This document shows, in pieces, positions 10,511 through 26,923 of a stretch of DNA of 64,000 nucleotides. The notes below the pieces were generated by a model that was not told where the DNA came from, made no database searches, and worked only from the letters and a program-made list of their open reading frames with translations. Origin of the DNA: Thermodesulfobacteriota bacterium (GTDB lineage Bacteria > Desulfobacterota_D > UBA1144 > Nemesobacterales > JAJCZQ01). The position numbers were made by a program, and so were the translations under genes. The stretch is taken from the NCBI GenBank assembly GCA_965215275.1, contig OZ244044.1:1600001-1664000 (forward strand). The letters are read 5' to 3'. The first letter of the stretch is position 1. Every line of letters begins with the position of its first letter.

Positions 10511-13500
10511 ATGGTCATAGCTGCAAAAGGAGAGAGCAGATTAGAAGACCAGTTATCTGAATGCAGAGATATCAGTGCAGACACGGAAGACCCGTTATAC
10601 GGATGTCAGTGGCATCTGAAGAACACGGGGCAGTTTATTTATTCAGGAAAGGAAATAACGGCAGGAGAAGATATAAACATAGAGGGTGTGTGGAACGAAG
10701 ACGTATACGGTTCTGGAATTAACGTAGCAGTTGTAAGTGATGGTATCGACCTTTCACATGAGGACCTTTCTGCAAACGTTGATCCTGGACTGAGCTATAA
10801 CTATTCCGAGAGCGTTGACCTTTCCGACAGTTCATCCTTTACCGGAACACGAGCAGCAGGAGTAATAGCAGCTACTGGATATAACGGACTGGGAGTAAGA
10901 GGAGTTGCACCCGGTGCAAGTATATACAGTAATGAGTTAACTGGTGATAACAGGGAAGTTGCCGCAGGGGATGCAATGGTCCGTAATAAGGAAATAACAG
11001 CAGTATCTGTTAACGACTGGGGACCGGAAGATAAATATTCTCTTGCTCAGGCATCAACTGTCTGGGAAGAAGGATTGGAACTTGGAATAAGTAAAGGGTT
11101 TTATGGTAAAGGTGTGTTTTACGTCCGGGGAGCAGGGGACGGGCATGAAAGAGGAGATCAGGCTAATTTTAATGAATATTCCAGCTATTACGGAGTAACA
11201 GCCGTTTGTTCAACGGACGGTTATGGAAAAAAGAGTATTTTTTCAGAAGAGGGAGTAAATCTATGGGTATGTGCACCTGGTTCTGATATTGTAACCACAG
11301 ATAACAACAACGATTACGTTGTAACTTCCGGAACTGTTCTATCAGCTTCACAGGCTGGAGGAGTGGCAGCACTGCTGAGAGAGATAAATGTAGATCTGAG
11401 CTGGAGGGATATAAAGCTTATACTTGCGGGTTCAGCACGGCAGAACGATTTTTCTGACGTGAGCTGGGAGACTGGAGCTGTTAAATACGGTTCTGATACG
11501 GAAAGATATAAATATAATCCTAAGTATGGTTTTGGCGTGGTAGACGCAGAAGCAGCCGCAGAACTTGCAAAAAGCTGGAAAGGCGTTGGTGAAATGAGGA
11601 CCGTTACAGCTTCTTCAGATAATGAACTGACAATCCCTGATAGAGATGGAGAAGCAGATGGGGTCCTTGTCTCCAGACTTATGATACCGGACCTGGAGGT
11701 AACATTTACGGAATTCGTTGAGGTAGAACTTGTTTTTTCTCATGACCGCTTACAGGACCTTGATATACAGATAACCTCTCCTTCCGGAACAACGTCTGAG
11801 CTTGTAAGGGAGTTTTCAGTTGAGGAAGAAGACGCTGAGATCAGTTATGTAAGAAGAACACATCGTTTCGGGTCGGCTAAGCACCTCGGAGAAGACCCTT
11901 CCGGAGAATGGATTCTCAATATAGCCGATACTGCTTCCGGAGATGAAGAAGATGGAGAAGAAGTGGGGACCTTACACTCCTGGAGCATTAAGGTATACGG
12001 GAATAAGAAGGGGGATACCGCTGCAGACCTTGCTAAGGAGATAACTCCTAAGGCTTTAACCTTCGGTGGTGCGACAGTTCAGGATCAGGTGTACAGAGCA
12101 GGAACTCAGATAACACCATTAGTACTGCCTGAGGCGACCGGGGCAGAAGGAATAACGTACAGTATAAGACCTGCTCCACCTGCTGGACTGAATTATAACG
12201 ATAATACCAGAACTATAAGCGGAACACCAACTGCTTCGCAGTCTAATATCCGTTATCAACATATTGCCAGAGACAAAGATGGGAAGACGACGAGTGTAGC
12301 GTTCCATATCAGGGTAAGGTTCCGTAACTCCACAACGCCGAGTTTCAGAGAGACTATCCCGGATCAGAACTATGTAACGGGGAGATCAATAACGCCACTG
12401 GTGTTCCCTCGTGCAACAGGAGGGGATGGTCAGCTAAGTTACAGTTTTGACGGCACTTTAAATAACTTACCAGGTGGATTGAGCCTTACCAGCAATCCGT
12501 TTAGGATAATTGGAACACCAAGTAATGCGGGGACAAGTACCTGGCAATGGACCGCTACTGACGCAGACGGGGATACGGCTACACTTGAGTTCAGGATAAG
12601 GATAAGAGCTGCAGCTGACGTTCCGGACTTCGGCGATACGCAGGTGAGGGATCAGACGTTTGGTAACGGCAGAACAATAAGTCTGGGAATGCCTGTGGCA
12701 GATGGAGGTAATGGAACTTTAAATTACAGTATAACTCCTGCCTTGCCTAATGGATTGACCTATACCAGTAACAACCGACAGATAAATGGAACGATCAACG
12801 TCTCTGGACAACTTCCTGTAACTACTACTTATACCTACAAGGTAACTGACTCTGATACAGATACTGATGACGGTGATTCTGATACTCTGACTTTCTCTTT
12901 TACGATAGAAGCTAATTCAGTGCCAAACTTCGGCAGTCAGACGGTAGAGGGTCAGGTGTATGCTACTGGGCAACAGGTAACGTTGACTCTGCCTCTTGCA
13001 ACGGGAGGGAATGGAAATTTAAGTTACAGTATAATCGGTGCTCTACCTTCCGGATTGAGTTTTAACCCAACCACCCGGGAGATAAGTGGAACACCAACTA
13101 CCGTAAAGTCTGCGAGGACTTATACATATAGAGCAAGGGACGATGATCTGGACACGGATACTATCACCTTCTCTATTACGATAACGGCCCTGTCCTTTGA
13201 CGGGCAGGTACCTTCTTCTCCTGTTTTGTACTCAGCAGAAAGACGAATAACACCAGTAACGCTGCCTGTGGCAACGGGAGGAGGTACTGCTCCATATACT
13301 TACAGTTTAACCCCTCGTTTACCTGATGGATTGAGTTTTAACCCAACCACCCGGGTTATAAGTGGAACACCGACTGCTGCGACGCCTTTGAATACTTATA
13401 CGTATACCGTTACAGACAGTAACGGAGTTACGGTGGAGATGACGTTCGATATTGCTGTAAGAGCACACTTTTCAGGCCTTACGATACAAAGTAAGGTGTA

Positions 13501-14488
13501 TACAGTCGGGACGGCAGTAATGGAAATGCTGCCTGAGGCAACTGGACATAATGGAACGGTAACATACAGTTTAACTCCTGAATTACCTTCCGGACTGGAT
13601 TTTACCCCTGCTACACGAGTGATAAGCGGAAGACCGACTGCTACACAGAATACGAGGCTTTATACGTATACTGATACTACCGGTACAGGTGGACCTGCTC
13701 GAACTTTGGTGTTCCATATCACGGTAAGAACAGAACCCAACACAATGCCGACCTTCGGCAGTGAAACTATAGATAATAAGGTGTATATAAACGGAGAAGC
13801 AGTAAATGAAACACTGCCTGAAGCAACGTCAGGGAATGCACCATTAACTTACAGCTTAAGTACTAATTTAGCAGGAGGTCGGCTAATTAACGGATTAAGT
13901 TTTAACAGAAACACCAGAGTATTAAGTGGAACACCTGATCTCAATCCAGTTCCACTTCCTGTAACTGTGAATCATACATATAAAGTAAGAGACAATGATG
14001 GAGATACAGCAGAGATAACGTTCAGTATAACAGTAGAAGAAGACAGCGAACCGGACTTCAGCGGTGTGACAATACCAGATCGTGTGTACACGGGTAGAAC
14101 AATAGAGCTGCCAGAGGCAGCGGGAGGGAATTTACCGGTTACATACAGTATAACGCCTGGTTTACCAGCGGGATTGAGTTTTAACGGTAGTACCAGAAGG
14201 ATAAGTGGGACACCCAGGAGTGCATCGACAAGAACTTACACGTATACGGCAACGGACAGGAATGGAGATATGGACACATTGGATTTCATGTTCAGTGTAG
14301 AGGTTACTTCTTCTCCACCACCACCAAATCCAAGACCAGCACCAGATACTGAAGCTGGTGGAGGAGGATGTGCGGTCTCAGAGCAGAGCAGCGTTGCTTC
14401 TGATATTCTCGGAGTAATGACATGTCTGATACTTATACCTGTATCTGTAACGATAAGAAGAAAGAGAAGATCTCATATAAAGACGTAG
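10511..14488 (+). CDS. Large surface protein: degenerate S8 (kexin-like) domain, P-domain, 8 Ig-like (He_PIG-type) repeats, GGGC-TM-basic tail; true 5' end lies upstream across poly-C tracts
   Basis: QWHLKNTGQ, LSWRDIKLIL, YGFGVVDA, GEWILNIAD; repeated LP.GL.FN..TR.ISGTP units; C-terminal GGGGCAV plus hydrophobic segment plus RRKRR. Confidence 0.85.
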   Translation: MVIAAKGESRLEDQLSECRDISADTEDPLYGCQWHLKNTGQFIYSGKEITAGEDINIEGVWNEDVYGSGINVAVVSDGIDLSHEDLSANVDPGLSYNYSESVDLSDSSSFTGTRAAGVIAATGYNGLGVRGVAPGASIYSNELTGDNREVAAGDAMVRNKEITAVSVNDWGPEDKYSLAQASTVWEEGLELGISKGFYGKGVFYVRGAGDGHERGDQANFNEYSSYYGVTAVCSTDGYGKKSIFSEEGVNLWVCAPGSDIVTTDNNNDYVVTSGTVLSASQAGGVAALLREINVDLSWRDIKLILAGSARQNDFSDVSWETGAVKYGSDTERYKYNPKYGFGVVDAEAAAELAKSWKGVGEMRTVTASSDNELTIPDRDGEADGVLVSRLMIPDLEVTFTEFVEVELVFSHDRLQDLDIQITSPSGTTSELVREFSVEEEDAEISYVRRTHRFGSAKHLGEDPSGEWILNIADTASGDEEDGEEVGTLHSWSIKVYGNKKGDTAADLAKEITPKALTFGGATVQDQVYRAGTQITPLVLPEATGAEGITYSIRPAPPAGLNYNDNTRTISGTPTASQSNIRYQHIARDKDGKTTSVAFHIRVRFRNSTTPSFRETIPDQNYVTGRSITPLVFPRATGGDGQLSYSFDGTLNNLPGGLSLTSNPFRIIGTPSNAGTSTWQWTATDADGDTATLEFRIRIRAAADVPDFGDTQVRDQTFGNGRTISLGMPVADGGNGTLNYSITPALPNGLTYTSNNRQINGTINVSGQLPVTTTYTYKVTDSDTDTDDGDSDTLTFSFTIEANSVPNFGSQTVEGQVYATGQQVTLTLPLATGGNGNLSYSIIGALPSGLSFNPTTREISGTPTTVKSARTYTYRARDDDLDTDTITFSITITALSFDGQVPSSPVLYSAERRITPVTLPVATGGGTAPYTYSLTPRLPDGLSFNPTTRVISGTPTAATPLNTYTYTVTDSNGVTVEMTFDIAVRAHFSGLTIQSKVYTVGTAVMEMLPEATGHNGTVTYSLTPELPSGLDFTPATRVISGRPTATQNTRLYTYTDTTGTGGPARTLVFHITVRTEPNTMPTFGSETIDNKVYINGEAVNETLPEATSGNAPLTYSLSTNLAGGRLINGLSFNRNTRVLSGTPDLNPVPLPVTVNHTYKVRDNDGDTAEITFSITVEEDSEPDFSGVTIPDRVYTGRTIELPEAAGGNLPVTYSITPGLPAGLSFNGSTRRISGTPRSASTRTYTYTATDRNGDMDTLDFMFSVEVTSSPPPPNPRPAPDTEAGGGGCAVSEQSSVASDILGVMTCLILIPVSVTIRRKRRSHIKT
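12055..14305 (+). repeat. Eight tandem ~90-100-aa Ig-like repeats
   Basis: Recurring F...T..D.VY..G...LPEATGG...TYS..P.LP.GL.F...TR.ISGTP...YTY..TD motif; boundaries approximate. Confidence 0.85.
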
Positions 14489-15297: not shown

Positions 15298-15780
15298 ATG
15301 CCTCTTTACGAGTTTGAATGTATAAAATGCAGGAACAATGTTGAGAGTTCCTTAAAGGTCTTAAAAAAGAAAAGAGATAAGAAAACTGTCGCAGGCCTTA
15401 TTGATAAACATAAGAACATTAATGCCATTGAGGTCGTGGACCTGAATAAGAACAAGATCATTGCCAGGCACGGCAAAAGAGGTGACGGTTCAGTTTTTAT
15501 GGATTTTTATCAGGATGAAGGCGAGGTGCTTGTACTCGTTAATATCAGACCTTACAGATTCTCCGAGTTGATCTACGAACCGGAGGATGAGAAAAAAATA
15601 AAATGCCGCTGTGGTGAAAAAAAGAAAGTGGAAAAAGTAATATCAGGATTTGCATTTACAAAGGATCTTTCCACTAATATGCCAAAGCCCGACCTGTCCA
15701 ATCTGCCCGCTTCGGTCAGGGACAGGACGTACATTGGGGATTATATAGAGGAAAAGGACAGACCAAAGAAGAACAGATAG
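15298..15780 (+). CDS. FmdB-like zinc-ribbon protein with internal insertion, paralog
   Basis: MPLYEFECIKC ... RFSELI...CRCG...EKVIS. Confidence 0.65.
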   Translation: MPLYEFECIKCRNNVESSLKVLKKKRDKKTVAGLIDKHKNINAIEVVDLNKNKIIARHGKRGDGSVFMDFYQDEGEVLVLVNIRPYRFSELIYEPEDEKKIKCRCGEKKKVEKVISGFAFTKDLSTNMPKPDLSNLPASVRDRTYIGDYIEEKDRPKKNR

Positions 15781-15792
15781 CAGGTCAGTCCT

Positions 15793-16443
15793 CTAATCCA
15801 TGGTGTAATCGGTTTTCTTTTTACCAAATCTTCTTTCCAGTTCTGTGTTTATGTCCTGCGGACCCAGTTCCAGCTCAGAAAGCAGTACAAGTGAGTGAAA
15901 CCATAGATCGGTGACCTCGTATATAAGTTCTTTTTTGCTCCTGTTCTTGCCTGCTATTATTGTCTCTCCTGCTTCTTCTCCGATCTTTTTCAATATTTTA
16001 TCCATACCGTCACTGAAGAGGCTGCTTACGTAAGATCCCTTGACGGGGTTCTTCTTTCTATCCTCTATGACCTTAAAAACTTTATATATTGCAGGGTCGG
16101 TAAACACGGGAGACAGTTCCTTAGTGGAGTCTGTCCGGGTGTGAAAACAGCTTTGTTCTCCTGTGTGACAGGCCACCCTTGTCTGATCGACCATGATCAG
16201 CAACGTGTCCTTATCACAATCTATGTAGATCTGTCTGACTTTCTGAACGTTCCCTGACTCTTCACCCTTTTTCCATATTTTTTTTCTGGATCTGCTCCAA
16301 AAATGCGTAAAACCCGTTTCAATGGTCAGTTTAACTGTCTCAGCGTTTGCATAAGCGAGCATGAGAACCTGTCCAGTTGTATTATCCTGTATTATTGTGG
16401 GGATTAGCCCATCTTTGTTGAATTTCAGTTCGTTAAGGTCCAT
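15793..16443 (-). CDS. hisIE: Bifunctional phosphoribosyl-AMP cyclohydrolase/phosphoribosyl-ATP pyrophosphatase
   Basis: [36 protein letters not shown]. Confidence 0.96.
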
Positions 16444-16479
16444 GCCTTCTCCCTTTATAAAATGAATACTTTTAAGATA

Positions 16480-16612
16480 GGGAATTATATACTGAATTAG
16501 ACATGATCAGCATACTGTTCTGCAAGCAGGTTTCCTCTAACCCTGTAACCTTTTGGCACTAACGAGTACTCAGCTTGCATCGGGAGACTTTCGTCCTTAT
16601 TCCCACCCGATA
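16480..16612 (-). ncRNA. Predicted omegaRNA scaffold of element A
   Basis: AUCGGG/CCCGAU stem, GAC-GAAA-GUC hairpin, UGCAAGC/GCUUGCA stem, terminal hairpin with the TIR; covaries with B and C; 5' end uncertain. Confidence 0.7.
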
Positions 16613-17954
16613 AAGAGGATAAACCTCTTTTAAGCATGTTCTTCGCAGCATTTGTATCAGCATGTTCCGTATGAGCACAGAAAATACCGACGCATTTAAA
16701 CAGCTCTCCTTTTCTATTTTCTTTATCTATCCATCCACAACGAGAACAGGTTTGTGACGTGTATTGAGCAGGTATCTTATGCAACTTGCCACCAGTGCTT
16801 AAAACCTTGTAATCAAGCTGATTAACAACCTTACCCAATTGCTGTTCTATTAAGGACCTGTTTAATCCTGATTTCTGCTTAATATTCTTACCAGGATCTT
16901 CCACAGTTCCTTTTGCAGATTTAGTCATATTCTTTAATTTTAAATCTTCCGCCATAATGAAATTATGCTTCCTTGAAAGTTCAGTAGTTATTTCGTGTAT
17001 CATGTAATGTTCTCTTTCTGCGACCCTTGCATATTCTTTTGCAAGTATTTGAACTTTCTTCTTTCTGCTGGCAGAACCTTTTACAGCTCTTGAAAGAATC
17101 TTTTGCTTTCTTTTAAGTTCTTTTCTATCCGTTTTTATACCTTTATAAAATGATCCATCTGATAAAGCGATCCTGTTATTTACTCCAAGATCTATCCCTA
17201 TCGGTCTGTCCATACCTCTGTCAACCCCAACTATCGCTTCATAAATAAACTGAATTTCTACTCTTAAAGCCGTTTGCACTATCCTTATATATCTTGTTCC
17301 TTCAGGTATCCTTCCCTTGAAGGAAACCCTGCCAATTCCTTTTATATACAACGAAGTCCTTCTTTCCTGCTTTCTGATCTTGCTTAACAGACGAGTTTCA
17401 AACGACCTGACCTTTCTGGAACTCTTCTTAAATCTCGGATGTCCACCTCGACTGAAAAACCTGTCATACGCACTATCTAATCTTTTTAAAACGGACAATT
17501 GAATCTGACGAAGAACTTTATTAAAAACAGGTTCTTCTTCTCTTATTTCAGTTAATGATTTTGATTGATCCTCATAACTGACCGACTTCTTTTTTAAATC
17601 TTCTTCAGGTAACATCTTCCAGTTTAAAGGATCATCACAAGGTTGAATGTCACTTTTAACACTATTCAACGCTTTATAAACAATGTTCAAATTCTTAACG
17701 GTATTTCCCTTATTATAAGAAATACCCGACTTCCAGTGTGGATAGAAATAAACCCTTAATCTATCTTCTGACAAACCCCATCTCTTCAGCTTCTTGTATT
17801 TTTCATATGCTTCCTTTCTTTCTTCTAAAGCACAGTTATACAAATAAGTTAATTGATCTAAAGTCCTGTCCAGACCTTCATGAGCAGATATATTCAACCC
17901 AGCCGCTCTACGGTCTGTTCTCATCTGTTTTATAATTTTAGTTTCACTATCCAT
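16497..17954 (-). CDS. tnpB: RNA-guided endonuclease TnpB (element A)
   Basis: RuvC GIDLG / AEDL / ADTNAA; Zn finger [30 protein letters not shown] motif. Confidence 0.93.
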
Positions 17955-18122
17955 CGTCTACAACACAACAACCGATCTATTAACTGCTTTCAAATTCGTC
18001 TCCTGTCTAATTAAGTATATAATTCCCTTAAGATATTATAATTGGGAATAATATACTTTAGTAAACAAAAGACAGGCAAATAGCTTTGATAGTGCTGTAA
18101 AATTAGGGAATTATATATAGAT

Positions 18123-19577
18123 ATGGATAGTGAAGGAAGTGTGATCAGAAAGACGAGAGTAGACCTCAGGGCGGTTAAGTTGGATCCGTCTGCTCATAAG
18201 AAACTGGAATCTATGTTAAACCAGCTTACCTATCTTTATAACCGAGCTCGTGAAGAAAGGATAAGATCATATGATAAATATGAGAAACTGATGAAATGGG
18301 GTTTATCAGAAAAGAGATTTAAGACGTATTTCTATCCCCACTGGAAGTCTGGACTTTCTTATAATAAAGGTAATACAGTTAAACATATAGACAAGGTATA
18401 TATAGCTCTTAACAGGGTTAGAAGTGAAGTCCGACCTTGTAACGACCCGTTAAACTGGAGAGAGTTATCAGAAAAAGAAATAGGAAAGAAGTCGATCAGT
18501 TACGAAGATCAGGCAAGATCACTGACGGAAATAAGGAACGACCTTTTACTGTCTGATGAGTTTAGTAAGGTTGACGCTCAAGCGCAACAGCGGACGTTAC
18601 AAAGACTGGATAAGGCTTATAAAGAATATCTAAAAGGGATACGTGGTCGTCCGAGATATAAGAACAGTAGCAGAAAGATAAAAAGTTTTGAAACTTACCA
18701 ATGGAGTAGAGTTAAGAAACAAGACAGAAGAACTTCCTTGTCCGTAAAAGGAGCAGGCAGGATGAGTTTCAAAGGCAGGATACCGGAAGGAACTAAATAC
18801 ATAAGGATAGTAAGAACTGCTTTAAGAGTAGAGATACAGTTTGTATATGAAACAGTTGCAGGAGTGGACAGAGGGTCAGACAGACCGATAGGGATAGATC
18901 TCGGAGTGAAGAACAGAATTACCTTATCGGATGGAACTTTCTATAAAGGAACAGAAATAGACAGGAAGGAACTTAAAAGAAAGCAAAGAGCAATAAGCAG
19001 AGCTGAAAAAGGTTCTAACAACAGAAACAAGAAGAAAACAGCTTATGCCAAAGAACGTGCAAGGACCACTGAAAGGGAACATAATAAAATACATGAATTA
19101 ACTACAGGGATAGTAAAGGGTCATGGTAATCATTTTATAGTAGAAGATCTGAAGTTAAAGAACATGACAAAGTCCGCTAAGGGGACCGTGAAAGATCCTG
19201 GCAAGAAAGTAAAGCAGAAATCGGGATTGAACAGGTCTATACAGGAGCAGCAATTGGGAAAGGTCATTAGTCAGCTTACTTACAAGGTTGAGAGCACTGG
19301 AGGTAAGATAATAAGAGTTCCATCCCGATACACAAGCCAGACCTGTTCTGCATGCGGATATGCAGCTAAAAAGAACAGAAAAGGAGAGTTATTTAAGTGC
19401 ATGTCCTGTGGTTATAAAGGCCATGCTGACTTAAACGCAGCTAATAACGTTCTCAAAAGAGGTTTATTCTTTTTGTCGGGTGGGAATAAGGACGAGAGTC
19501 TCCCGGTGCAAGCTGGGAACGTTATATCAAAAGAGAACGGGGTCAGAGGGACTCTGCTTGCAGAACAGTATATTTAG
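18123..19577 (+). CDS. tnpB: RNA-guided endonuclease TnpB (element B)
   Basis: GIDLG / VEDL / ADLNAA; CSAC..CMSC; clear paralog of the element A protein. Confidence 0.93.
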   Translation: MDSEGSVIRKTRVDLRAVKLDPSAHKKLESMLNQLTYLYNRAREERIRSYDKYEKLMKWGLSEKRFKTYFYPHWKSGLSYNKGNTVKHIDKVYIALNRVRSEVRPCNDPLNWRELSEKEIGKKSISYEDQARSLTEIRNDLLLSDEFSKVDAQAQQRTLQRLDKAYKEYLKGIRGRPRYKNSSRKIKSFETYQWSRVKKQDRRTSLSVKGAGRMSFKGRIPEGTKYIRIVRTALRVEIQFVYETVAGVDRGSDRPIGIDLGVKNRITLSDGTFYKGTEIDRKELKRKQRAISRAEKGSNNRNKKKTAYAKERARTTEREHNKIHELTTGIVKGHGNHFIVEDLKLKNMTKSAKGTVKDPGKKVKQKSGLNRSIQEQQLGKVISQLTYKVESTGGKIIRVPSRYTSQTCSACGYAAKKNRKGELFKCMSCGYKGHADLNAANNVLKRGLFFLSGGNKDESLPVQAGNVISKENGVRGTLLAEQYI

Positions 19578-19604
19578 TATTTGTTTACTAAATGTATAAT
19601 TCCC
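19475..19604 (+). ncRNA. Predicted omegaRNA scaffold of element B
   Basis: GUCGGG/CCCGGU, GAC-GAGA-GUC, UGCAAGC/GCUUGCA, and 12-bp terminal hairpin GUAUAUUUAGUA/UACUAAAUGUAU. Confidence 0.7.
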
Positions 19605-19656
19605 TTATAGTTTGTGTATCATATAAAAGAAATTAAATTATATTTCAGGAGTCGTT

Positions 19657-19866
19657 ATGGCAAGAGTAACCATAGAAGATTGTTTGGAAAAAGTGGAAAA
19701 CCGCTTTGCACTTTCGGTAGCAGCTATGAAAAGGGCAAAACAGGTGGTTAATGGTGCAATGCCTCTGGCATCGGAAAAAGATAATAAACACGTCGTTATT
19801 GCTCTCAGGGAGATAGCAGAAGGGAAAGTCAACGTGATCTATCCTGATGCACCTGGAAAATATTAG
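19657..19866 (+). CDS. rpoZ: RNA polymerase omega subunit
   Basis: [17 protein letters not shown]...[10 protein letters not shown]. Confidence 0.96.
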
Positions 19867-19890
19867 AGCTACTTACCTGATCTATATAAG

Positions 19891-21867
19891 ATGTACCTTC
19901 TAGGTATCGACACGGGCGGGACCTTTACCGACTTTGTGCTTTATGACGGAAAAGATTATAAGGTCCATAAGATCTCCTCAACGCCTGATGACCCTTCCAC
20001 GGCTATATGTGACGGGGTTAATTACTTCAATGAAGTTTCGTTTCGGTATCTGACCTTAGTTCATGGGACAACCGTTGCAACGAACACCCTCCTTGAACGA
20101 AAAGGTGCCAGGGTACTGCTGTTGACCACTAAGGGTTTTGAAGACGTTATTGAGATCGGCAGACAGAACCGCGGTAAACTATACGATCTTTTCTGGACGA
20201 AAAAACCTGCCTTAGTACCGAAACGGGACAGGATAGGTATATCCGAAAGGGTTAATTCCAAAGGTATGGTCTTAAAGGAATTAGACGGTGATGAAGTACG
20301 CACGCTTATGCAAAGTTCAAACTTTGAGGAATTTGAAGCGGTTGCCGTCTGCTTTATTAACTCTTACGTTAATCCTGTACATGAGATCAAAGTTCAGAAC
20401 GTTCTAAGTTCCCTGGATATCCCGGTTTCAATATCGTACGAGGTTATACCTGAATTCAGGGAATATGAACGAACTTCAACCACCGTGGTGAATTCATATC
20501 TCATTCCCAAGGTCAGGGGATATATGCATTCCCTGAACAAAAAACTAAAAGGGGCGGGTATTTACGTTATGCAGTCGAACGGAGGCGTTATAACCCCCGA
20601 GCAGGCGGCAAATGAACCGGTAAAGGTAATTGCCTCGGGTCCGGCTGGCGGAGTGGTCGGGGCTTACAAGATCGCCCGTCAGACAGGGATCGATAAGGTA
20701 ATAACTTACGACATGGGGGGAACTTCCACGGACCTTTCCGTGTGTGATGGTGAATTGAAGTTTACAACGGAGACCGTAATTGATGATGTCCCGATAAAGA
20801 TCCCAATGATGGACATTCTTACCATCGGATCGGGTGGAGGGTCAATTGCGTACGCGGATTCCGGAGGGGTATTGAAAGTAGGGCCTGAAAGTGCAGGTGC
20901 AGACCCGGGACCAGCGTGCTATGGAAAGGGAAAATATCCTACGGTAACCGATGCAAACCTTATGCTTGGAAGAATGCAGGCAGAGAATTTTCTGGGTGGC
21001 AGGATGAAGGTCGACCCCAAGCTGTCAGAAAGTTCCATCAAGACCTTAAACAACGGTTTTGGAATTGATCCCCTTAAACTGGCCGAGATGATAATAAAAG
21101 TTGCAAATTCCAACATGGAACGTGCTGTTAAGGTCATTTCGGTCGAGAAAGGATACGACCCCAGGGAGTTCTCGCTCATCAGTTTCGGTGGGGCAGGGGG
21201 ATTACATGCCTGCGAATTGGCAAGGAGCATCGGCCTTAAAAGAGTGATATTTCCGGTTAACCCGGGAGTTCTTTCTGCGCTGGGTATGCTGTTTGCCGAT
21301 TCGTTCAAAGATTACAGTAAAGGGTTTTTTCTGAACTGTAAGGACGCGGACCTCAGCGTACTTGAACTCCAGTATGGTGAACTGGAGCAGAAAGCGGTCA
21401 GGGATATTCAAGGCGTGGAACAAAACGCTTCATGTTCAAAGGAAGATACAGAGTTTTTAAGGTCAATGGACGTCCGATATAAAAGACAGTCACATGAGCT
21501 GACAATTCCGTACAGCCGTGACTTCATAGATGATTTTCATAAAAAGCATCTCAAAAGGTACGGTTTTAACGGCGTTGATAACGCTGTTGAAATAGTGGCG
21601 TTAAGGGTCCGTGCCGTGATCAGCCGTTCCGTGTTCGAGCTGCCTGAGCTGAAAACAAAAAGATCGGAAATTACAGGAACTGGTTCTCTGGTCTATATAA
21701 ATGGTGAATGGACCGATATAGTTCGTTATGACAGGAGCCGGTTTTATAACGGCTTTGTTTTTAAAGGGCCTTCGATCATTAACGAGGATACGTCAACTAT
21801 TTTCATACCTGAAGGTTTCAGATGCGTTGTGGACCGGTTTGGAAATATAGTTTCAGAAGGGTGTTGA
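19891..21867 (+). CDS. Hydantoinase A/5-oxoprolinase family protein
   Basis: GIDTGGTFTD, HGTTVATN, SGPAGG, DMGGTSTD, GPESAGADPGPACYG. Confidence 0.92.
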   Translation: MYLLGIDTGGTFTDFVLYDGKDYKVHKISSTPDDPSTAICDGVNYFNEVSFRYLTLVHGTTVATNTLLERKGARVLLLTTKGFEDVIEIGRQNRGKLYDLFWTKKPALVPKRDRIGISERVNSKGMVLKELDGDEVRTLMQSSNFEEFEAVAVCFINSYVNPVHEIKVQNVLSSLDIPVSISYEVIPEFREYERTSTTVVNSYLIPKVRGYMHSLNKKLKGAGIYVMQSNGGVITPEQAANEPVKVIASGPAGGVVGAYKIARQTGIDKVITYDMGGTSTDLSVCDGELKFTTETVIDDVPIKIPMMDILTIGSGGGSIAYADSGGVLKVGPESAGADPGPACYGKGKYPTVTDANLMLGRMQAENFLGGRMKVDPKLSESSIKTLNNGFGIDPLKLAEMIIKVANSNMERAVKVISVEKGYDPREFSLISFGGAGGLHACELARSIGLKRVIFPVNPGVLSALGMLFADSFKDYSKGFFLNCKDADLSVLELQYGELEQKAVRDIQGVEQNASCSKEDTEFLRSMDVRYKRQSHELTIPYSRDFIDDFHKKHLKRYGFNGVDNAVEIVALRVRAVISRSVFELPELKTKRSEITGTGSLVYINGEWTDIVRYDRSRFYNGFVFKGPSIINEDTSTIFIPEGFRCVVDRFGNIVSEGC

Positions 21868-21878
21868 GGTTTACCATA

Positions 21879-23186
21879 ATGTCCAAAAATATCATTATAG
21901 GTGGTGGTGTGACGGGGCTTGCCGCGGGTCTGACCTCAGACGTTAAGATATATGAAGCAAAACAGGTTCCCGGAGGTATCTGCTCGTCGTATTATATCCG
22001 TCCCGGTGATAAGCGACCTGAGGCTGCACAACCTGAAGATCAAGAAGCCTACAGGTTCGAGTTAGGTGGTGGACACTGGATCTTTGGTGGAAAGCCCAAA
22101 GTATTGGATTTTATAAGATCACTGACCCCGGTAAAAGAATATACAAGAAAGTCCTCGGTTTACTTCCCGGATACGGAGTTGTATGTTCCGTATCCAATTC
22201 AGAACAATTTGAGATACTTAGGTAAAGACGTGGCAGACAGGGTGTTAGCGGAGATCAGGAACTCTACTGATATGATACCAGACACTATGGAGCAGTGGCT
22301 TGAAAAAAGCTTCGGAAAGACACTTGTAAAGATGTTCTTTGGTCCGTTCCATGAGCTGTATACCGCGGGGCTCTGGACAAGGATCGCACCCCAGGACGCT
22401 TATAAATCTCCCGTGAACGTTGAAGCGGTTAAAAAAGGTGCTTATGGAGACAGGACGGACGCTGTGGGTTACAACGTTAAGTATCTGTACCCTTCAGAGG
22501 GACTTGATGTCCTTGCAGGTAAAATGGCGGGAAGATGTAATATCTCATACGACAAGAAGGTTGAGGAAATAAATCTGGATAAAAAAGAAGTACTTTTTTC
22601 AGATGGGTCAGGAGACAGATACGATAGACTTTTATCAACTCTGCCGCTGAACAAGGCACTGGACTGTTCAGGTCTTACCGTTGATGAATACCGTGATGAC
22701 TACACCTCCGTCCTGGTCCTTAATATCGGTGCTACAAGAGGTGACAGATGTCCTGATGATCACTGGATATACGTGCCTGACAGCAGGTCCAAGTTCCATA
22801 GAGTTGGTTTTTACAGTAACGTTGACAGTTCTTTCCTGCCATTATCGTCCAGAAAGGATATGGACAGGGTCAGTATTTATGTTGAAAGGGCATTTCCAAA
22901 CGGCAGGAAGCCCTCTGACAGTGAGATAAGTTCTTATTCCGGATCAGTAGTTGATGAGTTAAAGGACTGGAAGTTCATTGATGAAGCTGAGACCGTTCAT
23001 CCAACCTGGATAGAGGTTGCCTATACCTGGTCAAAGCCGGGTTCAAGCTGGAGAATGAAAGCATTGAACCTTCTTGCGAAGCAGAACGTCGTTCAGGCAG
23101 GCAGATACGGCAGGTGGAAGTTTCAGGGGATCGCGGAGTCCCTGGAAGATGGTTTTATGGCCGGTAATGATCATCTCTTGTCATGA
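21879..23186 (+). CDS. FAD-dependent oxidoreductase (protoporphyrinogen oxidase/UDP-galactopyranose mutase-like)
   Basis: IIGGGVTGLAAG Rossmann motif at ATG 21879; GGHW; GRYGRW; adjacent to glycan genes. Confidence 0.75.
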   Translation: MSKNIIIGGGVTGLAAGLTSDVKIYEAKQVPGGICSSYYIRPGDKRPEAAQPEDQEAYRFELGGGHWIFGGKPKVLDFIRSLTPVKEYTRKSSVYFPDTELYVPYPIQNNLRYLGKDVADRVLAEIRNSTDMIPDTMEQWLEKSFGKTLVKMFFGPFHELYTAGLWTRIAPQDAYKSPVNVEAVKKGAYGDRTDAVGYNVKYLYPSEGLDVLAGKMAGRCNISYDKKVEEINLDKKEVLFSDGSGDRYDRLLSTLPLNKALDCSGLTVDEYRDDYTSVLVLNIGATRGDRCPDDHWIYVPDSRSKFHRVGFYSNVDSSFLPLSSRKDMDRVSIYVERAFPNGRKPSDSEISSYSGSVVDELKDWKFIDEAETVHPTWIEVAYTWSKPGSSWRMKALNLLAKQNVVQAGRYGRWKFQGIAESLEDGFMAGNDHLLS

Positions 23187-23201
23187 AGTACTCAAGGCTG
23201 A

Positions 23202-24272
23202 TCAGCAAGCTATTATTTCCATCATTCGTTCAACCCTGTTCTTTAAGCTGTGGTCTTTCTTTATTCTTTTATATGAAGCCATGGCTATCTCTTCTCTTTC
23301 TTTTTCGTTCTTTAGGTAGTATTGCACTTTATCTCTCAGTTCTTTTTTATCTTTAAAAGTTATGATCTCTTCTCCTATCCTGAAATAATCCCCTATACTT
23401 TTTTTATCGTCCACGATCTGGAACGTTTTTGACGCGGGGATCTCAAAGAGTCGGTAATTCCCCCCGCTGACCTCAAATTCCCGATGGATATTGACCCCTA
23501 TTTTAGCTGACTTCATCACTTTTATCAGATCGTCACCATATACCACGCCTCTGTAGTTTGATCCAAGGGGCGTTTGATGATCACTGAAGTTCCAGCTCCA
23601 TATACCCAGTCCCAGGTCGGAGATATGTTCTAAAAAATTTTTTCTCCTTTCATCGTACATTCCCGAGAAACAGATATTGACCTTGTTGTCTTTAATAAAG
23701 TCACTGTCAGGATTAATTGAGTCATAGTAGGAAACGCTGCATCCAAGTGGTAATGTCTGCGTGTTTGTGATATTAAGTTCCTCTTCGTAGTATTTAACGT
23801 ATGATCTGTCATAAATAAAAGTGTGGTCGCAGTTTTTGAGTATTTTGTGTACGCCAGGCGACACTTTTGACGGATGTAATCCGAGCCATGTCACCACTTT
23901 TATCCCTTCTTTTTTAAGGTTTTTTATTAAACTTGATAAGTTATAGGTATTTATAAGATATATGAACAGTACGTCGGGGTTGAAGTCCTTTACCTCTTCT
24001 GAGATCTGCTGTGACAGATACAGATCATTTGGGTAATCAGCGATGAACCCGAAGTGTTTTCTGAATGTAAGATACTCTTCACTAAAGCTGTTTCTTATCG
24101 TCCTGTCTTTTCTTAAATGGTCTAACAGGACTGGCATCTTTGTATCGGTGGTTTGCAGTACCTTTACTTCATGTCCCAGACCTGCTGCCTCCCGGGACAG
24201 ATGAACCATATATGTACTTATAAAGAACGTTGTATCGTCAAACGTGATGGGAGCCGCGAAAAGAATTTTCAT
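23202..24272 (-). CDS. Glycosyltransferase, CgeB/YkvP-like GT-B
   Basis: KIGVNIH...NYRLFEIPA...F.IGEEI..F C-terminal domain. Confidence 0.8.
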   Translation of the reverse strand: MKILFAAPITFDDTTFFISTYMVHLSREAAGLGHEVKVLQTTDTKMPVLLDHLRKDRTIRNSFSEEYLTFRKHFGFIADYPNDLYLSQQISEEVKDFNPDVLFIYLINTYNLSSLIKNLKKEGIKVVTWLGLHPSKVSPGVHKILKNCDHTFIYDRSYVKYYEEELNITNTQTLPLGCSVSYYDSINPDSDFIKDNKVNICFSGMYDERRKNFLEHISDLGLGIWSWNFSDHQTPLGSNYRGVVYGDDLIKVMKSAKIGVNIHREFEVSGGNYRLFEIPASKTFQIVDDKKSIGDYFRIGEEIITFKDKKELRDKVQYYLKNEKEREEIAMASYKRIKKDHSLKNRVERMMEIIAC

Positions 24273-24457
24273 TAATTAACGTTGATCTCTTTCAGCTTTT
24301 TTTTTGTAAACAGGAAATACAGTCTTTCAAAAGCAACTAACAGATGGATGGTTATAAAAAAAGAGAGTGATAAGATGAACTTAAAACCATGTATGTATTT
24401 ATTTTTAGTGCTGCGACCTGAACGGTTCATATCCTTCATTATATGAATAGCAGACAA
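24272..24457 (-). CDS. Small hypothetical membrane protein or gene remnant
   Basis: Stop overlaps the start of the next gene (TAATG); one hydrophobic segment; start uncertain. Confidence 0.35.
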   Translation of the reverse strand: MSAIHIMKDMNRSGRSTKNKYIHGFKFILSLSFFITIHLLVAFERLYFLFTKKKLKEINVN

Positions 24458-24474
24458 GATCTTTTATAATATTA

Positions 24475-24637
24475 GGGAATAATATACTTTAGTAAACAAA
24501 AGACAAGCAAATAGCTTTGATAATACTGTAAAATTGGGGAATTATATATAAATATGAGAAACTGATAAAATGGGGTTTGTCAGAAAAAAAGGTTTAAGAC
24601 GTATTTCTACCCACACTGGAAGTCTGGGATTTCTTAC
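24475..24637 (+). pseudogene. Remnant of an element-B-like copy: left end plus deleted tnpB 5' fragment
   Basis: Near-identical to 18044-18125 joined to 18283-18361; no right end seen. Confidence 0.85.
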
Positions 24638-24686
24638 CATATAGCTGTTAAGGTTAAAATTCTCATTGCAATGCTTTGATAATTAA

Positions 24687-24817
24687 GGGAATTATAAAGG
24701 AAAGTTGACAAACTTACCCATACTGTTCTGAGTGCAGAGTTCCTCTATCCCTGTTCTCTTTTGATCTGATACTCTTAGCACTCATCGGGAGTATTTCTAC
24801 CTTATTCCCACCCGATA
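24687..24817 (-). ncRNA. Predicted omegaRNA scaffold of element C
   Basis: AUCGGG/CCCGAU, GUA-GAAA-UAC, UGAGUGC/GCACUCA; compensatory changes relative to A and B. Confidence 0.7.
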
Positions 24818-25937
24818 TGAAGTCTCCTTCATTAAGAGTATTGATATTTTTACCTGCATTTATATCCCTGTTTTCTGAATAACCGCAATATATACAGTTA
24901 AATACTCTTTCAGACAGAGGCAGTTTTGGATTTATCTTTCCGCATTCAGAACAGGCTCTTGTTGTATAATGAGCTTTAACTAAAACCAGCTTGCCTCCAG
25001 CTATCTCGGCTTTGTAGTCAAGTTGATGTTTGATCTTACCCCATTGCTGTTCTGTTATGGATTTAGCAAGATGATGGTTCTTTACCATTCCTTGTATATT
25101 CAAATCCTCTAATTTTATATGATTACACTTCTTTACTATATTGGTAGTCATTCTGTGTATAGCGTTATTTTCACGATCGGTAGTTCGTTCCCATTCCTTT
25201 GCTAACAATAAAACTTTCTTCTTTCTGCTGTCAGAACCTTTTACCGCTCTTGAAACAATTCTCTGCTTTCTTTTCAGTTCCTTCCTGTCTATCCTGATAC
25301 CGGGAACTTTAGTTCCATCTGAAAAAGCTAATCTGTTTGTTATTCCAAGATCTATCCCTATGGAATTATCCAAAGGTCTCTTCTTCTCATTTGTAAACTC
25401 ACACAGAAACTGGAGCTTAATTCTTAACGAACTCCTGATTATTCTTATTATTGTTTTAGGTTGCTTTAATACAACTCCGTCAGGTATAGAACCTTTGAAG
25501 GATAATCTGCCTATTCCCTTAACAGTTAAATATGTTCTTCTGCCTATCTTCTCAATGTTTTTATAATTGTTTGTTTCAAAACTCCTTACAGGTCTGTTTG
25601 GACCTTTATATTTAGGTCTGCCAACCTTCCTTACCTTCTTGCCTGCTTTCTTGTTCCTTAAATAGTTCAAATACGGTCTATATGCATTATCCAGTCTTTC
25701 CAGAACGCTTCTTTGAGCTGTAACATTAAACTTTTCAAATTCCTTGTCTTGCTCTCGGACCTCAGTTAGTTCGTTAAACTGTTCGTATTTAGAGATAGTT
25801 CTTCCATACCAATCCCAGGATTTTAACCTATGGTACAAGGCACTGTTATACAGATCGGTAAGCTGATTTAAGAATTTATCCAGCCTTTTATGAAAACCAC
25901 TATCTGCCTTTACAGTTCTTGTAATCGTTCTAACCAT
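24714..25937 (-). CDS. tnpB: RNA-guided endonuclease TnpB (element C)
   Basis: GIDLG / LEDLN / RDINAG; CSEC..CIYC; 407 aa. Confidence 0.93.
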   Translation of the reverse strand: MVRTITRTVKADSGFHKRLDKFLNQLTDLYNSALYHRLKSWDWYGRTISKYEQFNELTEVREQDKEFEKFNVTAQRSVLERLDNAYRPYLNYLRNKKAGKKVRKVGRPKYKGPNRPVRSFETNNYKNIEKIGRRTYLTVKGIGRLSFKGSIPDGVVLKQPKTIIRIIRSSLRIKLQFLCEFTNEKKRPLDNSIGIDLGITNRLAFSDGTKVPGIRIDRKELKRKQRIVSRAVKGSDSRKKKVLLLAKEWERTTDRENNAIHRMTTNIVKKCNHIKLEDLNIQGMVKNHHLAKSITEQQWGKIKHQLDYKAEIAGGKLVLVKAHYTTRACSECGKINPKLPLSERVFNCIYCGYSENRDINAGKNINTLNEGDFISGGNKVEILPMSAKSIRSKENRDRGTLHSEQYG

Positions 25938-25943
25938 TTAATA

Positions 25944-25972
25944 ACATTACCTTTTTATATTCTGTTTGTCAA
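25944..25972 (-). promoter_or_regulatory. Putative tnpB promoter in element C
   Basis: Minus strand TTGACA-17-TAATGT, 6 nt before the ATG. Confidence 0.45.
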
Positions 25973-26008
25973 TTTATTTTTGTCAACTTTTCTTTATAAT
26001 TCCCATAA

Positions 26009-26923
26009 TTAACAGTTTCTGGGTTCAAAACCGAGCAGCAGCCTGAAGCTCTCATACACCCGAACGTAATTAAGTAAAACACGAATAATAACAATTTTTA
26101 ATTTGTTACCGTTTCTTTTGATTTTTGGACTTACATAATTGTGATTTTTTAATGGTTTCCGGATATATGTGACAGGGAGTAAATTCGATAAGGTTAGACG
26201 AAACCAGAATAATGATGAATATCCCCTTTTTTTATAATAAAGATATTCTCCCCCGGTAATCCTTAAATTTTTTCTTATTAAGTCCTTTAAAGTATTATGT
26301 GCAGGATGCTTTACAATCACGTTTCTTCCATAAATGATCTTGGAGCCTGTGATAATAGCCCTGTCTCCCCATTCTCTGTCGCCGCCGCTTCTGAATGAAC
26401 CATCAAAAATTCCAACGTCTGATAGCGTGGATTTAGAGGTAAATAAATTTGCTGTTACAGAAAAATTTAACTTGTTAATAAATCTCTCCTGGTTGAACGC
26501 AAACAGCATTTCATATTGTTCAACTGCGTTCAGATGGTCCTTGTTTTTATATGTTAATTCGATCCTGCCACCAACAACGCCATAGTAGTTGAGTATTTTT
26601 AAATTGTTTACTCCCGTTTCTATCCAGTTCGGGTAGGGTATGCAATCTGAATCAGTGAAGGCAATAATACTTCCTTTTGCTTGTTGTAATCCTTTGTTTC
26701 TGGCGGCATAGGAACCGCTTTTTTGTTCTTTAAGCAGGATTATCTTGTATAATGATTTTAACTTGAGCAGTTTTTTCCAGTGAAATTCGCTTGAATCATT
26801 ATCAACAACTATTACTTCATACAGTCTTTTATCATAACTTTGATCGTTAAGTGACTTTAGGCACAGACCTAATCTGTCAGAGTCGTTCAAATGTGGAATT
26901 ATTACTGAAACAAATTTCTTCAT
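26009..26923 (-). CDS. Glycosyltransferase family 2
   Basis: VSVIIP, VVDNDS, AARNKG, FTDSDC; AT-rich relative to neighbours. Confidence 0.9.
   Translation of the reverse strand: MKKFVSVIIPHLNDSDRLGLCLKSLNDQSYDKRLYEVIVVDNDSSEFHWKKLLKLKSLYKIILLKEQKSGSYAARNKGLQQAKGSIIAFTDSDCIPYPNWIETGVNNLKILNYYGVVGGRIELTYKNKDHLNAVEQYEMLFAFNQERFINKLNFSVTANLFTSKSTLSDVGIFDGSFRSGGDREWGDRAIITGSKIIYGRNVIVKHPAHNTLKDLIRKNLRITGGEYLYYKKRGYSSLFWFRLTLSNLLPVTYIRKPLKNHNYVSPKIKRNGNKLKIVIIRVLLNYVRVYESFRLLLGFEPRNC

Follow-up and report, generated by a model that had tools for sequence, protein, structure and literature searches.

tnpB-only elements with IS1595-type ends, in which the right end is predicted to complete the TnpB guide RNA

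We analyzed a 64,000-nucleotide stretch of a Thermodesulfobacteriota genome (contig OZ244044.1, positions 1,600,001 to 1,664,000; hereafter the window) that contains three elements, A, B and C, each of 1.3-1.6 kb, with TIRs of the GGGAATTAT type, 8-bp TSDs and tnpB as the only long ORF. On balance we favor, as probable, the reading that these are tnpB-only elements with IS1595 ends, that the right end completes the guide RNA of the encoded TnpB, and that the elements are kept or spread by TnpB homing. The features of the three elements are given below in window coordinates.

16480-18027, minus strand: element A, 1,548 bp; tnpB at 16497-17954, predicted scaffold at 16480-16612
16472-16479 and 18028-18035: the two copies of the TSD of A, both TTAAGATA
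18036-18038, minus strand: candidate TAM of A, TAA
18044-19604, plus strand: element B, 1,561 bp; tnpB is its sole gene, with a TIR pair and a TSD matching at 7/8 positions
18033-18035, plus strand: candidate TAM of the B family, ATA, the three bases before the left TSD
18036-18043, plus strand: left TSD of B, TTATAATT
18044-18068, plus strand: left TIR of B
18106-18118, plus strand: inner TIR-like copy just 5' of the start of B tnpB, preceded by TG and an AT-rich 8-mer
18123-19577, plus strand: tnpB of B, 484 aa; its stop codon lies within the terminal stem
19475-19480 with 19502-19507, plus strand: predicted stem 1, enclosing the loop GGGAAT (19482-19487) and an optional GNRA hairpin (19491-19500)
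19508-19562, plus strand: region of predicted stem 2, GCAAGC (19508-19513) with GCTTGC (19556-19561), interior variable
19568-19597, plus strand: predicted terminal stem, internal arm 19568-19579 with TIR arm 19586-19597 (from covariation, folds and tree counts)
19580-19604, plus strand: right TIR of B; its final ATTCCC (19599-19604) is predicted to form the 3' strand of the pseudoknot and to end the scaffold
19605-19612, plus strand: right TSD of B, TTATAGTT
19605-19620, plus strand: predicted guide of B (right TSD and flank), its start placed by register
24475-24660, plus strand: truncated element of type B, consisting of a left TIR and deleted parts of the tnpB 5' region, adjoining the right end of C
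24687-26004, minus strand: element C, 1,318 bp; tnpB at 24714-25937, predicted scaffold at 24687-24817
24679-24686 and 26005-26012: the two copies of the TSD of C, both ATAATTAA
26013-26014, minus strand: candidate TAM of C, TG

No transposase gene lies within A, B or C. Elements A and B stand head to head (16472-19612) with abutting TSDs (18028-18035 and 18036-18043), so that the candidate TAM of each falls inside the TSD of the other. The genome as a whole holds four families (A-D) with 16 near-full-length copies between them, at least two of these copies without a full ORF, together with three copies of a distant TnpB (E) that have similar ends; L406, L407, L408, L409 and L410 of the same genome are decayed remnants in which an omegaRNA-plus-TIR end stands with little or no tnpB. 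ATA precedes the left-TSD position in all three full copies of B. Inside B, the stretch 18096-18118 (TG and TAAAATTA, then the inner TIR-like copy) resembles a C-type left junction, and the inner copy is possibly a relic of nested capture or insertion with TIR exchange when family B arose. A scan for promoters and terminators stayed at chance level. Four DNA sequencing runs over 15600-26800 showed no junction that bypasses A, B or C, and hence no empty allele was seen at these sites.

The ends connect these elements to IS1595. Thirty-four loci of the genome, many of them fragmentary, match a 313-317 aa transposase (Pfam DDE_Tnp_IS1595, E 5.5e-36), and seven of the eight tnpB-element TIRs tested are identical at 21-23 of 24 positions to the TIR beside an IS1595 locus (for the left TIR of B, 23/24, next to a transposase fragment). 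The closest partner transposase of C is split into two ORFs and the partners of A and B are partial matches; the intact IS1595 transposases of this genome have more distant TIRs. We take the ends to resemble those of the ISNwi1 subgroup of IS1595. At none of 412 loci do tnpB and an IS1595 transposase occur together. The elements have GG-start TIRs that match those of IS1595 members, and an 8-bp AT-rich TSD such as those that IS1595 members make at their targets (according to the available parts of PMC8101967 and PMC12561309); because the transposase is missing in cis, we class them as non-autonomous IS1595 derivatives rather than full members. Given the identity of the TIRs, they are likely to be mobilized in trans by an IS1595 transposase encoded elsewhere. 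For one IS1595 member, a circle joined through the 8-bp repeat has been detected by PCR (PMC12561309, available part). Orthologous empty sites with a single TSD copy were found in 5/5 genomes for the insertion L032 and at five more sites by an all-against-all scan, the check at L332 being unclean (7, 3 and 8 mismatches in three loci). Autonomous IS1595 elements with cargo occur in the same genomes; at G000:C1:1002026-1005187, 1812584-1815955 and L386, the cargo looks like restriction-modification genes.

The proteins of A, B and C score 167-201 bits against NF040570 (cut-off 100) and lie above the cut-offs of PF07282 and PF01385 as well. TnpB B has the RuvC D-E-D residues, a C4 zinc finger and an insertion of about 70 aa in the REC region. 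The RuvC-II glutamate, E277, is in the canonical position approximately 50 residues before the zinc finger (C329). By sequence, the closest natural relative of solved structure is ISDra2 TnpB (E 2e-56), which is also the best fold match (PDB 8h1j, 8bf8); the AlphaFold model of B has a pLDDT of 65.8 and a pTM of 0.39, with low confidence in the REC insertion. Placed by alignment, this insertion, present in A, B and D, would sit next to the helix that corresponds to the part of ISDra2 whose residues presumably read the TAM. The D-E-D residues are intact in all 107 full-length ORFs (68/68 C-type and 39/39 E-type), a set preselected by length and a CxxC motif and free of broken copies, and dN/dS is 0.10-0.53 in 18/18 pairs; judged from these comparisons, tnpB is under purifying selection.

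An earlier note on this DNA had described, at the 3' ends of the three tnpB genes, a covarying omegaRNA scaffold that incorporates the right TIR, and the motifs that it named are present in A, B and C letter for letter: the stems UCGGG/CCCG(A/G) and UGCAAGC/GCUUGCA or UGAGUGC/GCACUCA, the invariant GAACAGUAU, the three TIR hairpins, and the GGGAAT and ATTCCC segments at 19482-19487 and 19599-19604. Its GNRA hairpin likewise occurs in all three elements, but it is optional and is absent from many relatives. We compared an unfitted alignment of 72 related C-type 3' ends. Over the 11 pairs of the terminal stem and the pseudoknot, 89.9% are paired, versus 83.0 +/- 0.6% in shuffled alignments, and two-sided changes number 48, versus 14 in shuffles (0/500 shuffles as high in both cases); slid-register controls gave 31-61% pairing. 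The covariation proposed for the terminal stem is therefore borne out on homologous ends. Terminal-stem pair 3 is AU in 44 ends, GC in 21, GU in four and CG in two, pair 4 is UA in 49, GC in 15 and CG in two, and 49 of the 55 distinct variants form a closed stem. On the TnpB tree, single-side changes at pairs 3 and 4 number 9+7 and 7+9, and joint changes only 10 and 9, with both arms altered together approximately six and seven times; part of the joint changes may reflect recombination or swaps of whole ends. The pairs of stem 1 hold in 68-72 of 72 ends, with four Watson-Crick types at two positions, as counted by best-register extraction (a procedure that favors pairing, adopted because of a one-column offset in alignment A4). 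The upstream scaffold as a whole covaries within the coding region.

The pseudoknot, which the earlier note had drawn between GGGAAU and the terminal AUUCCC, stands in a reduced form: both strands are present and the core is conserved (pairs 1-4 hold in 72/72, 72/72, 71/72 and 68/71 ends), but it comprises four to five base pairs rather than six (pair 5 holds in 53/71 and pair 6 in 37/71), with only five two-sided changes. GGGA/UCCC is found in nearly all rows, family D (GGGAC/GUCCC) and L320 (GGAAA/UUUCC) being two-sided variants, and the 3' strand is also constrained by the transposase. In this alignment the pseudoknot is supported by conservation and homology more than by covariation.

Concerning the strand, G-U pairs exceed A-C mismatches on the sense strand by 6:1, 6:0 and 6:2 in the individual stems (18:3 pooled; one of the three tests is significant alone), which favors an RNA read from that strand. 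Folding of single sequences gave z scores of -2.97, -2.03 and -1.18 for sense and -2.37, -0.82 and -2.63 for antisense, and the minimum-energy fold of B has GGGAAU/AUUCCC as a nested helix that replaces stem 1. Rfam returned no match within 16000-26500. As the single folds are modest and strand-blind and Rfam has no match, the case rests on comparison, and it is on comparative analysis only that these 3' ends appear to be OMEGA RNAs, that is, structured 3'-end RNAs with a terminal pseudoknot. Thirty-eight E-type ends share the loop and the terminus and have a different scaffold; they are 96% paired and too alike to reveal covariation (the score is not above shuffles, 68/500, with one modelled pair on a gap column). 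The RNA model had no matches to TIR-less relatives. L397 and L398 have the same internal arm as B of the window and a different TIR pair, and two copies of this comparison have a less stable terminal stem (-2.6 versus -10.2 kcal/mol), which suggests a TIR exchange ahead of compensation.

Where the guide would begin can be placed by register. ISDra2 pairs -5U to -3C with -103A to -105G, has a non-canonical pair at -2A and an unpaired -1A, and continues with the guide (PMC10097598, available part). Two copies of a TIR-less relative, with the loop GGAAC, start to diverge directly after GTTCAC, the same register as in ISDra2; ATTCCC against GGGAAU fits this register (-3C, -2C and -1C), so that the guide would start at base 1 of the right TSD. 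We infer that the last C is the final base of the scaffold and that the guide consists of the right TSD and its flank. Alternatively, the scaffold might reach beyond the TIR and take in either one base of the right TSD, as in IS607, or all of it, as in Fanzors, with a later guide and a TAM that includes left-TSD bases. Such extension was tested for IS607 TnpB and predicted for Fanzor1/2* (PMC10711439, available part), and it would suit several features of our sites, namely the A at TSD base 1 in 23/23 E-type sites, the T at the same base in 6/6 C sites of this genome, and a CRISPR-like repeat beside an E-type TnpB that ends in ATTCCCAAG. Against this, TSD base 1 varies over the 40 C-type sites (A in 21, T in 15 and C in four, with positions 5-8 merely AT-rich) and the sharp signal is at -1, the register of ISDra2 and the TIR-less relative puts the scaffold end at the last C, and a variable 8-mer is hardly usable as a fixed part of a scaffold. 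We regard the extension as unlikely; the uniform A of the E-type sites makes an extension by one base conceivable mainly for the E lineage.

For the flanks we used sites with TIRs and a TSD matching at 7/8 positions or better: 88 of 240 TnpB-hit loci passed (66 after dropping orthologous insertions), and the other 152 were mostly distant TIR-less relatives, truncated copies and decayed TSDs. G stands at position -1 of the left TSD in 38/40 C-type sites, versus 10/40 at the mirror position (p 6e-11), and TG precedes the left TSD in 23/40, versus 6/40 on the mirror side; the copies counted include relatives and are not independent. At autonomous IS1595 sites, a small control set (16) of mixed TIR types drawn largely from this one genome, G is found in 3/16 and 2/16. 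Later-fetched sites in other phyla fit the G motif (2/2 with a perfect TSD, and two more by eye). Families A, B and D, all of which carry the REC insertion, have A instead of G at -1, and E-type sites have a purine there. We read the one-sided motif 5' of the left TSD as a candidate TAM, G or TG for C-type elements; that of A, B and D is probably TAA/ATA.

This motif might have been chosen at insertion rather than by later retention, either through a subfamily-specific transposase preference matched by TnpB or through the TnpB complex steering the transposase. Its frequency is 95% even in copies with perfect TSDs; the autonomous element L386, which has a C-type TIR, sits at ATG|A as the tnpB elements do (L382 and L385 do not); the C-type L325 has the flank that goes with its TIR type rather than that of its neighbor in the tree; and the TnpA and TnpB of IS605 have a common motif (bioRxiv 10.1101/2023.03.14.532601, available part). 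Such a choice is nevertheless improbable in our judgment, given that the autonomous IS1595 sites lack a G bias in either orientation (5/32), that similar TIRs go with different motifs according to the TnpB clade (L204 and L205 have E-like TIRs yet G), and that the C copies of this genome show TG, with a TIR of the GTTGACA type that elsewhere goes with a relaxed -2 position.

The evidence for the RNA and for the flank motif also bears on whether tnpB is passive cargo, in which case the hairpin would be a sub-terminal repeat at the DNA level and survival of insertions at translation starts would produce the flank bias. A gene start does lie near 12 of the 40 C-type sites and 12 of the 23 E-type ones, start-codon rescue (described below) is real, single-sequence folds pick no strand, and several copies here are broken or reduced. 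All the same, G is at -1 in 27 of the 28 C-type sites distant from gene starts (background 0.22-0.25), dN/dS is well below 1 with the catalytic residues intact, wobble pairs are in excess on the sense strand, and the upstream scaffold covaries inside the coding region, so that we hold passive cargo to be very improbable. The earlier note had likewise argued for covariation of the RNA with the TIR and against TnpB as passive cargo, a position that the joint arm changes, the dN/dS values, the D-E-D residues and the one-sided site motif sustain. Origin from start codons or Shine-Dalgarno sequences was rejected as the main cause of the G bias on the same count of sites away from starts.

Start-codon rescue by the right TIR was observed at L031, L032, L033, L122, L055, L357 and other loci of genus g10. 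Right TIRs with an ATG 15 nt from the end lie directly after a host start ATG in 8/18 cases, and those without such an ATG in 0/22 (p 6e-4); E-type ends have the ATG at -25, and 5/18 sit one base further on, which is in frame too. Through the in-frame ATG of the TIR, the interrupted host gene gains a new start.

Under the homing reading that we prefer, IS1595 transposase would insert loosely into AT-rich 8-mers, and only insertions adjacent to a TAM would be driven to persistence. The tnpB transcript would run through the right TIR and would then be trimmed to the omegaRNA, with the TIR supplying the last stem and the pseudoknot strand of the guide RNA. An empty allele (TAM, TSD and flank) could arise by excision through the TSD or arrive by recombination or on incoming DNA; it would match the guide fully, be cut by TnpB and be repaired from the filled allele. 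The left junction of a filled site matches over only 8 bp, fewer than the approximately 12 bp needed by ISDra2, and so would escape cutting. TnpB is known to cut donor joints and thereby to retain IS605 elements, for which homing has been shown (bioRxiv 10.1101/2023.03.14.532601, available part). Such ends may have captured tnpB because their ATTCCC would complete the pseudoknot. The homing reading assumes a strong loss of TAM-less insertions, which the 95% frequency of the motif requires.

Matching relatives occur in 30 of the 36 genomes of genus g10, which belongs to the same order, and in none of four genomes of the window's own family. Among the matches listed are Candidatus Dadabacteria, Thermodesulfobacteriota, Boseongicola, Paracoccaceae, Gammaproteobacteria, Latescibacterota and Dehalococcoidia; IS1595 transposases are encoded in 5/5 checked genomes from other groups, several with the same TIR type nearby. 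A metagenome scan with a single protein confirmed nothing, a metagenome motif scan gave a TnpB match at 3/120 loci (the rest are probably chance), and none of three loci examined on viral contigs (24 loci in all) was a TIR-bounded copy. The best trees place C-type TnpBs (with A, B and D) and E-type TnpBs in two clades with full support each. Two independent captures, one per clade, were considered and set aside, because a common clade passes the AU test when L008 is part of the data set (p-AU 0.12) and the p of 4e-7 against it was an artefact of omitting L008.

The locus L008/L421 (G019:C4:385-1753, minus strand) encodes an E-type TnpB that is nested among the TnpBs of TIR elements, with no TIR found; it is followed by an E-type scaffold and a mini array of two full 39-nt repeats ending in TATTCCCAAG, one partial repeat and two 27-nt spacers. 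The repeat occurs at this single locus and nowhere else among five genomes of that genus, and the protein family is large (1,058 matches at E 1e-60 or better). L008 is possibly a nascent type V CRISPR system, on this one locus, with a repeat homologous to the TIR-derived RNA end. At L009 (G027:C13), a 597-aa TnpB-like protein is followed by a CRISPR-like array. Positions 10511-14488 of the window and G000:C1:1082243-1085852 encode a large multi-copy protein that is presumably a subtilisin-type protease, with tandem repeats (about 95 aa each) after the protease part and an anchor at the C-terminus. A wider account, which we consider doubtful, would combine these elements of the picture: ATTCCC was pre-adapted to completing the conserved TnpB pseudoknot, TnpBs plugged into IS1595 (perhaps twice) and became RNA-guided, TSD-seeded gene drives with a TAM reduced to one or two bases, the TnpB complex steers the transposase to TAM sites, and one lineage yielded a CRISPR array with a TIR-derived repeat.

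As in ISDra2 TnpB (IS200/IS605), the predicted RNA overlaps the 3' end of the gene and the right end of the element, a GGAA(U) loop forms the predicted pseudoknot with the terminal bases, and the TAM, here a candidate, lies 5' of the element. Unlike ISDra2, the elements have TIRs and 8-bp TSDs instead of Y1 hairpin ends, contain no TnpA, and have a candidate TAM of one to three bases that is not obviously set by the transposase, with the TSD as the predicted guide seed. IS200/IS605 is defined by the lack of TIRs and TSDs, by hairpin ends and by a Y1 transposase (PMC13565253, available part), and elements with TIRs and TSDs, with tnpB alone inside and with NF038281 below its cut-off fall outside it; they also fall outside IS607 (serine recombinase, no TIRs or TSDs), with NF038280 below its cut-off.

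A similar layout is that of the DDE-1 to DDE-6 TnpBs, as far as the available part of Altae-Tran et al. 2023 (PMC10691335) describes them, in which tnpB lies inside inverted repeats and its 3' end is close to the end of the transposon; solo TnpBs whose ends match those of the DDE-associated ones are thought to be mobile in trans. That part of the paper names IS630, has IS1595 only in a table of comparison profiles, and gives no RNA structure, guide boundary or TAM for the DDE branches, and a review names ISL2, IS630 and IS1031 as TnpB-linked DDE families (PMC13565253, available part). Fanzor1 and Fanzor2* (Yoon et al. 2023, PMC10711439, available part) lie in similarly non-autonomous TIR/TSD elements of eukaryotes that carry the nuclease only, with the TIR predicted to be in the scaffold. 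The present elements differ from Fanzors in their bacterial hosts, in the canonical position of the RuvC-II residue (E277 versus C329; the Fanzor glutamate is six residues before the zinc finger), in keeping the pseudoknot, and in that the TSD is apparently guide and not scaffold, and we do not count them as Fanzors. With IS1595 insertion sequences and their passenger forms they share GG-start TIRs and the 8-bp AT-rich TSD (PMC8101967 and PMC12561309, available parts), and they differ from IS1595 members in having no cis transposase, a passenger RNA predicted to be built into the TIR and a one-sided target bias.

DDE-associated TnpBs have been published already, as has the prediction that TIRs form part of Fanzor scaffolds; a search of titles and abstracts, in which subscription journals were thinly covered, found no published paper pairing IS1595 with TnpB. 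The IS1595 identity, the 8-bp TSD, the non-autonomy and the predicted role of the TSD as guide seed go beyond the earlier note.

Reviews ask why bacterial TnpB seldom joins DDE transposons (PMC13565253, available part) and how a guide RNA handles TIRs and variable TSDs (PMC10711439, available part). The elements described here would represent a third solution beside those of IS605 and IS607/Fanzor, in which the TIR is scaffold, the TSD is seed and the TAM lies outside, and many natural copies of it exist. The family also points to compact nucleases (about 400 aa) with a predicted TAM of G or TG which, if active, would be unusually permissive tools for genome editing, and the elements make it possible to test whether homing is sufficient by itself to give a TAM bias to a transposase that has no such preference.
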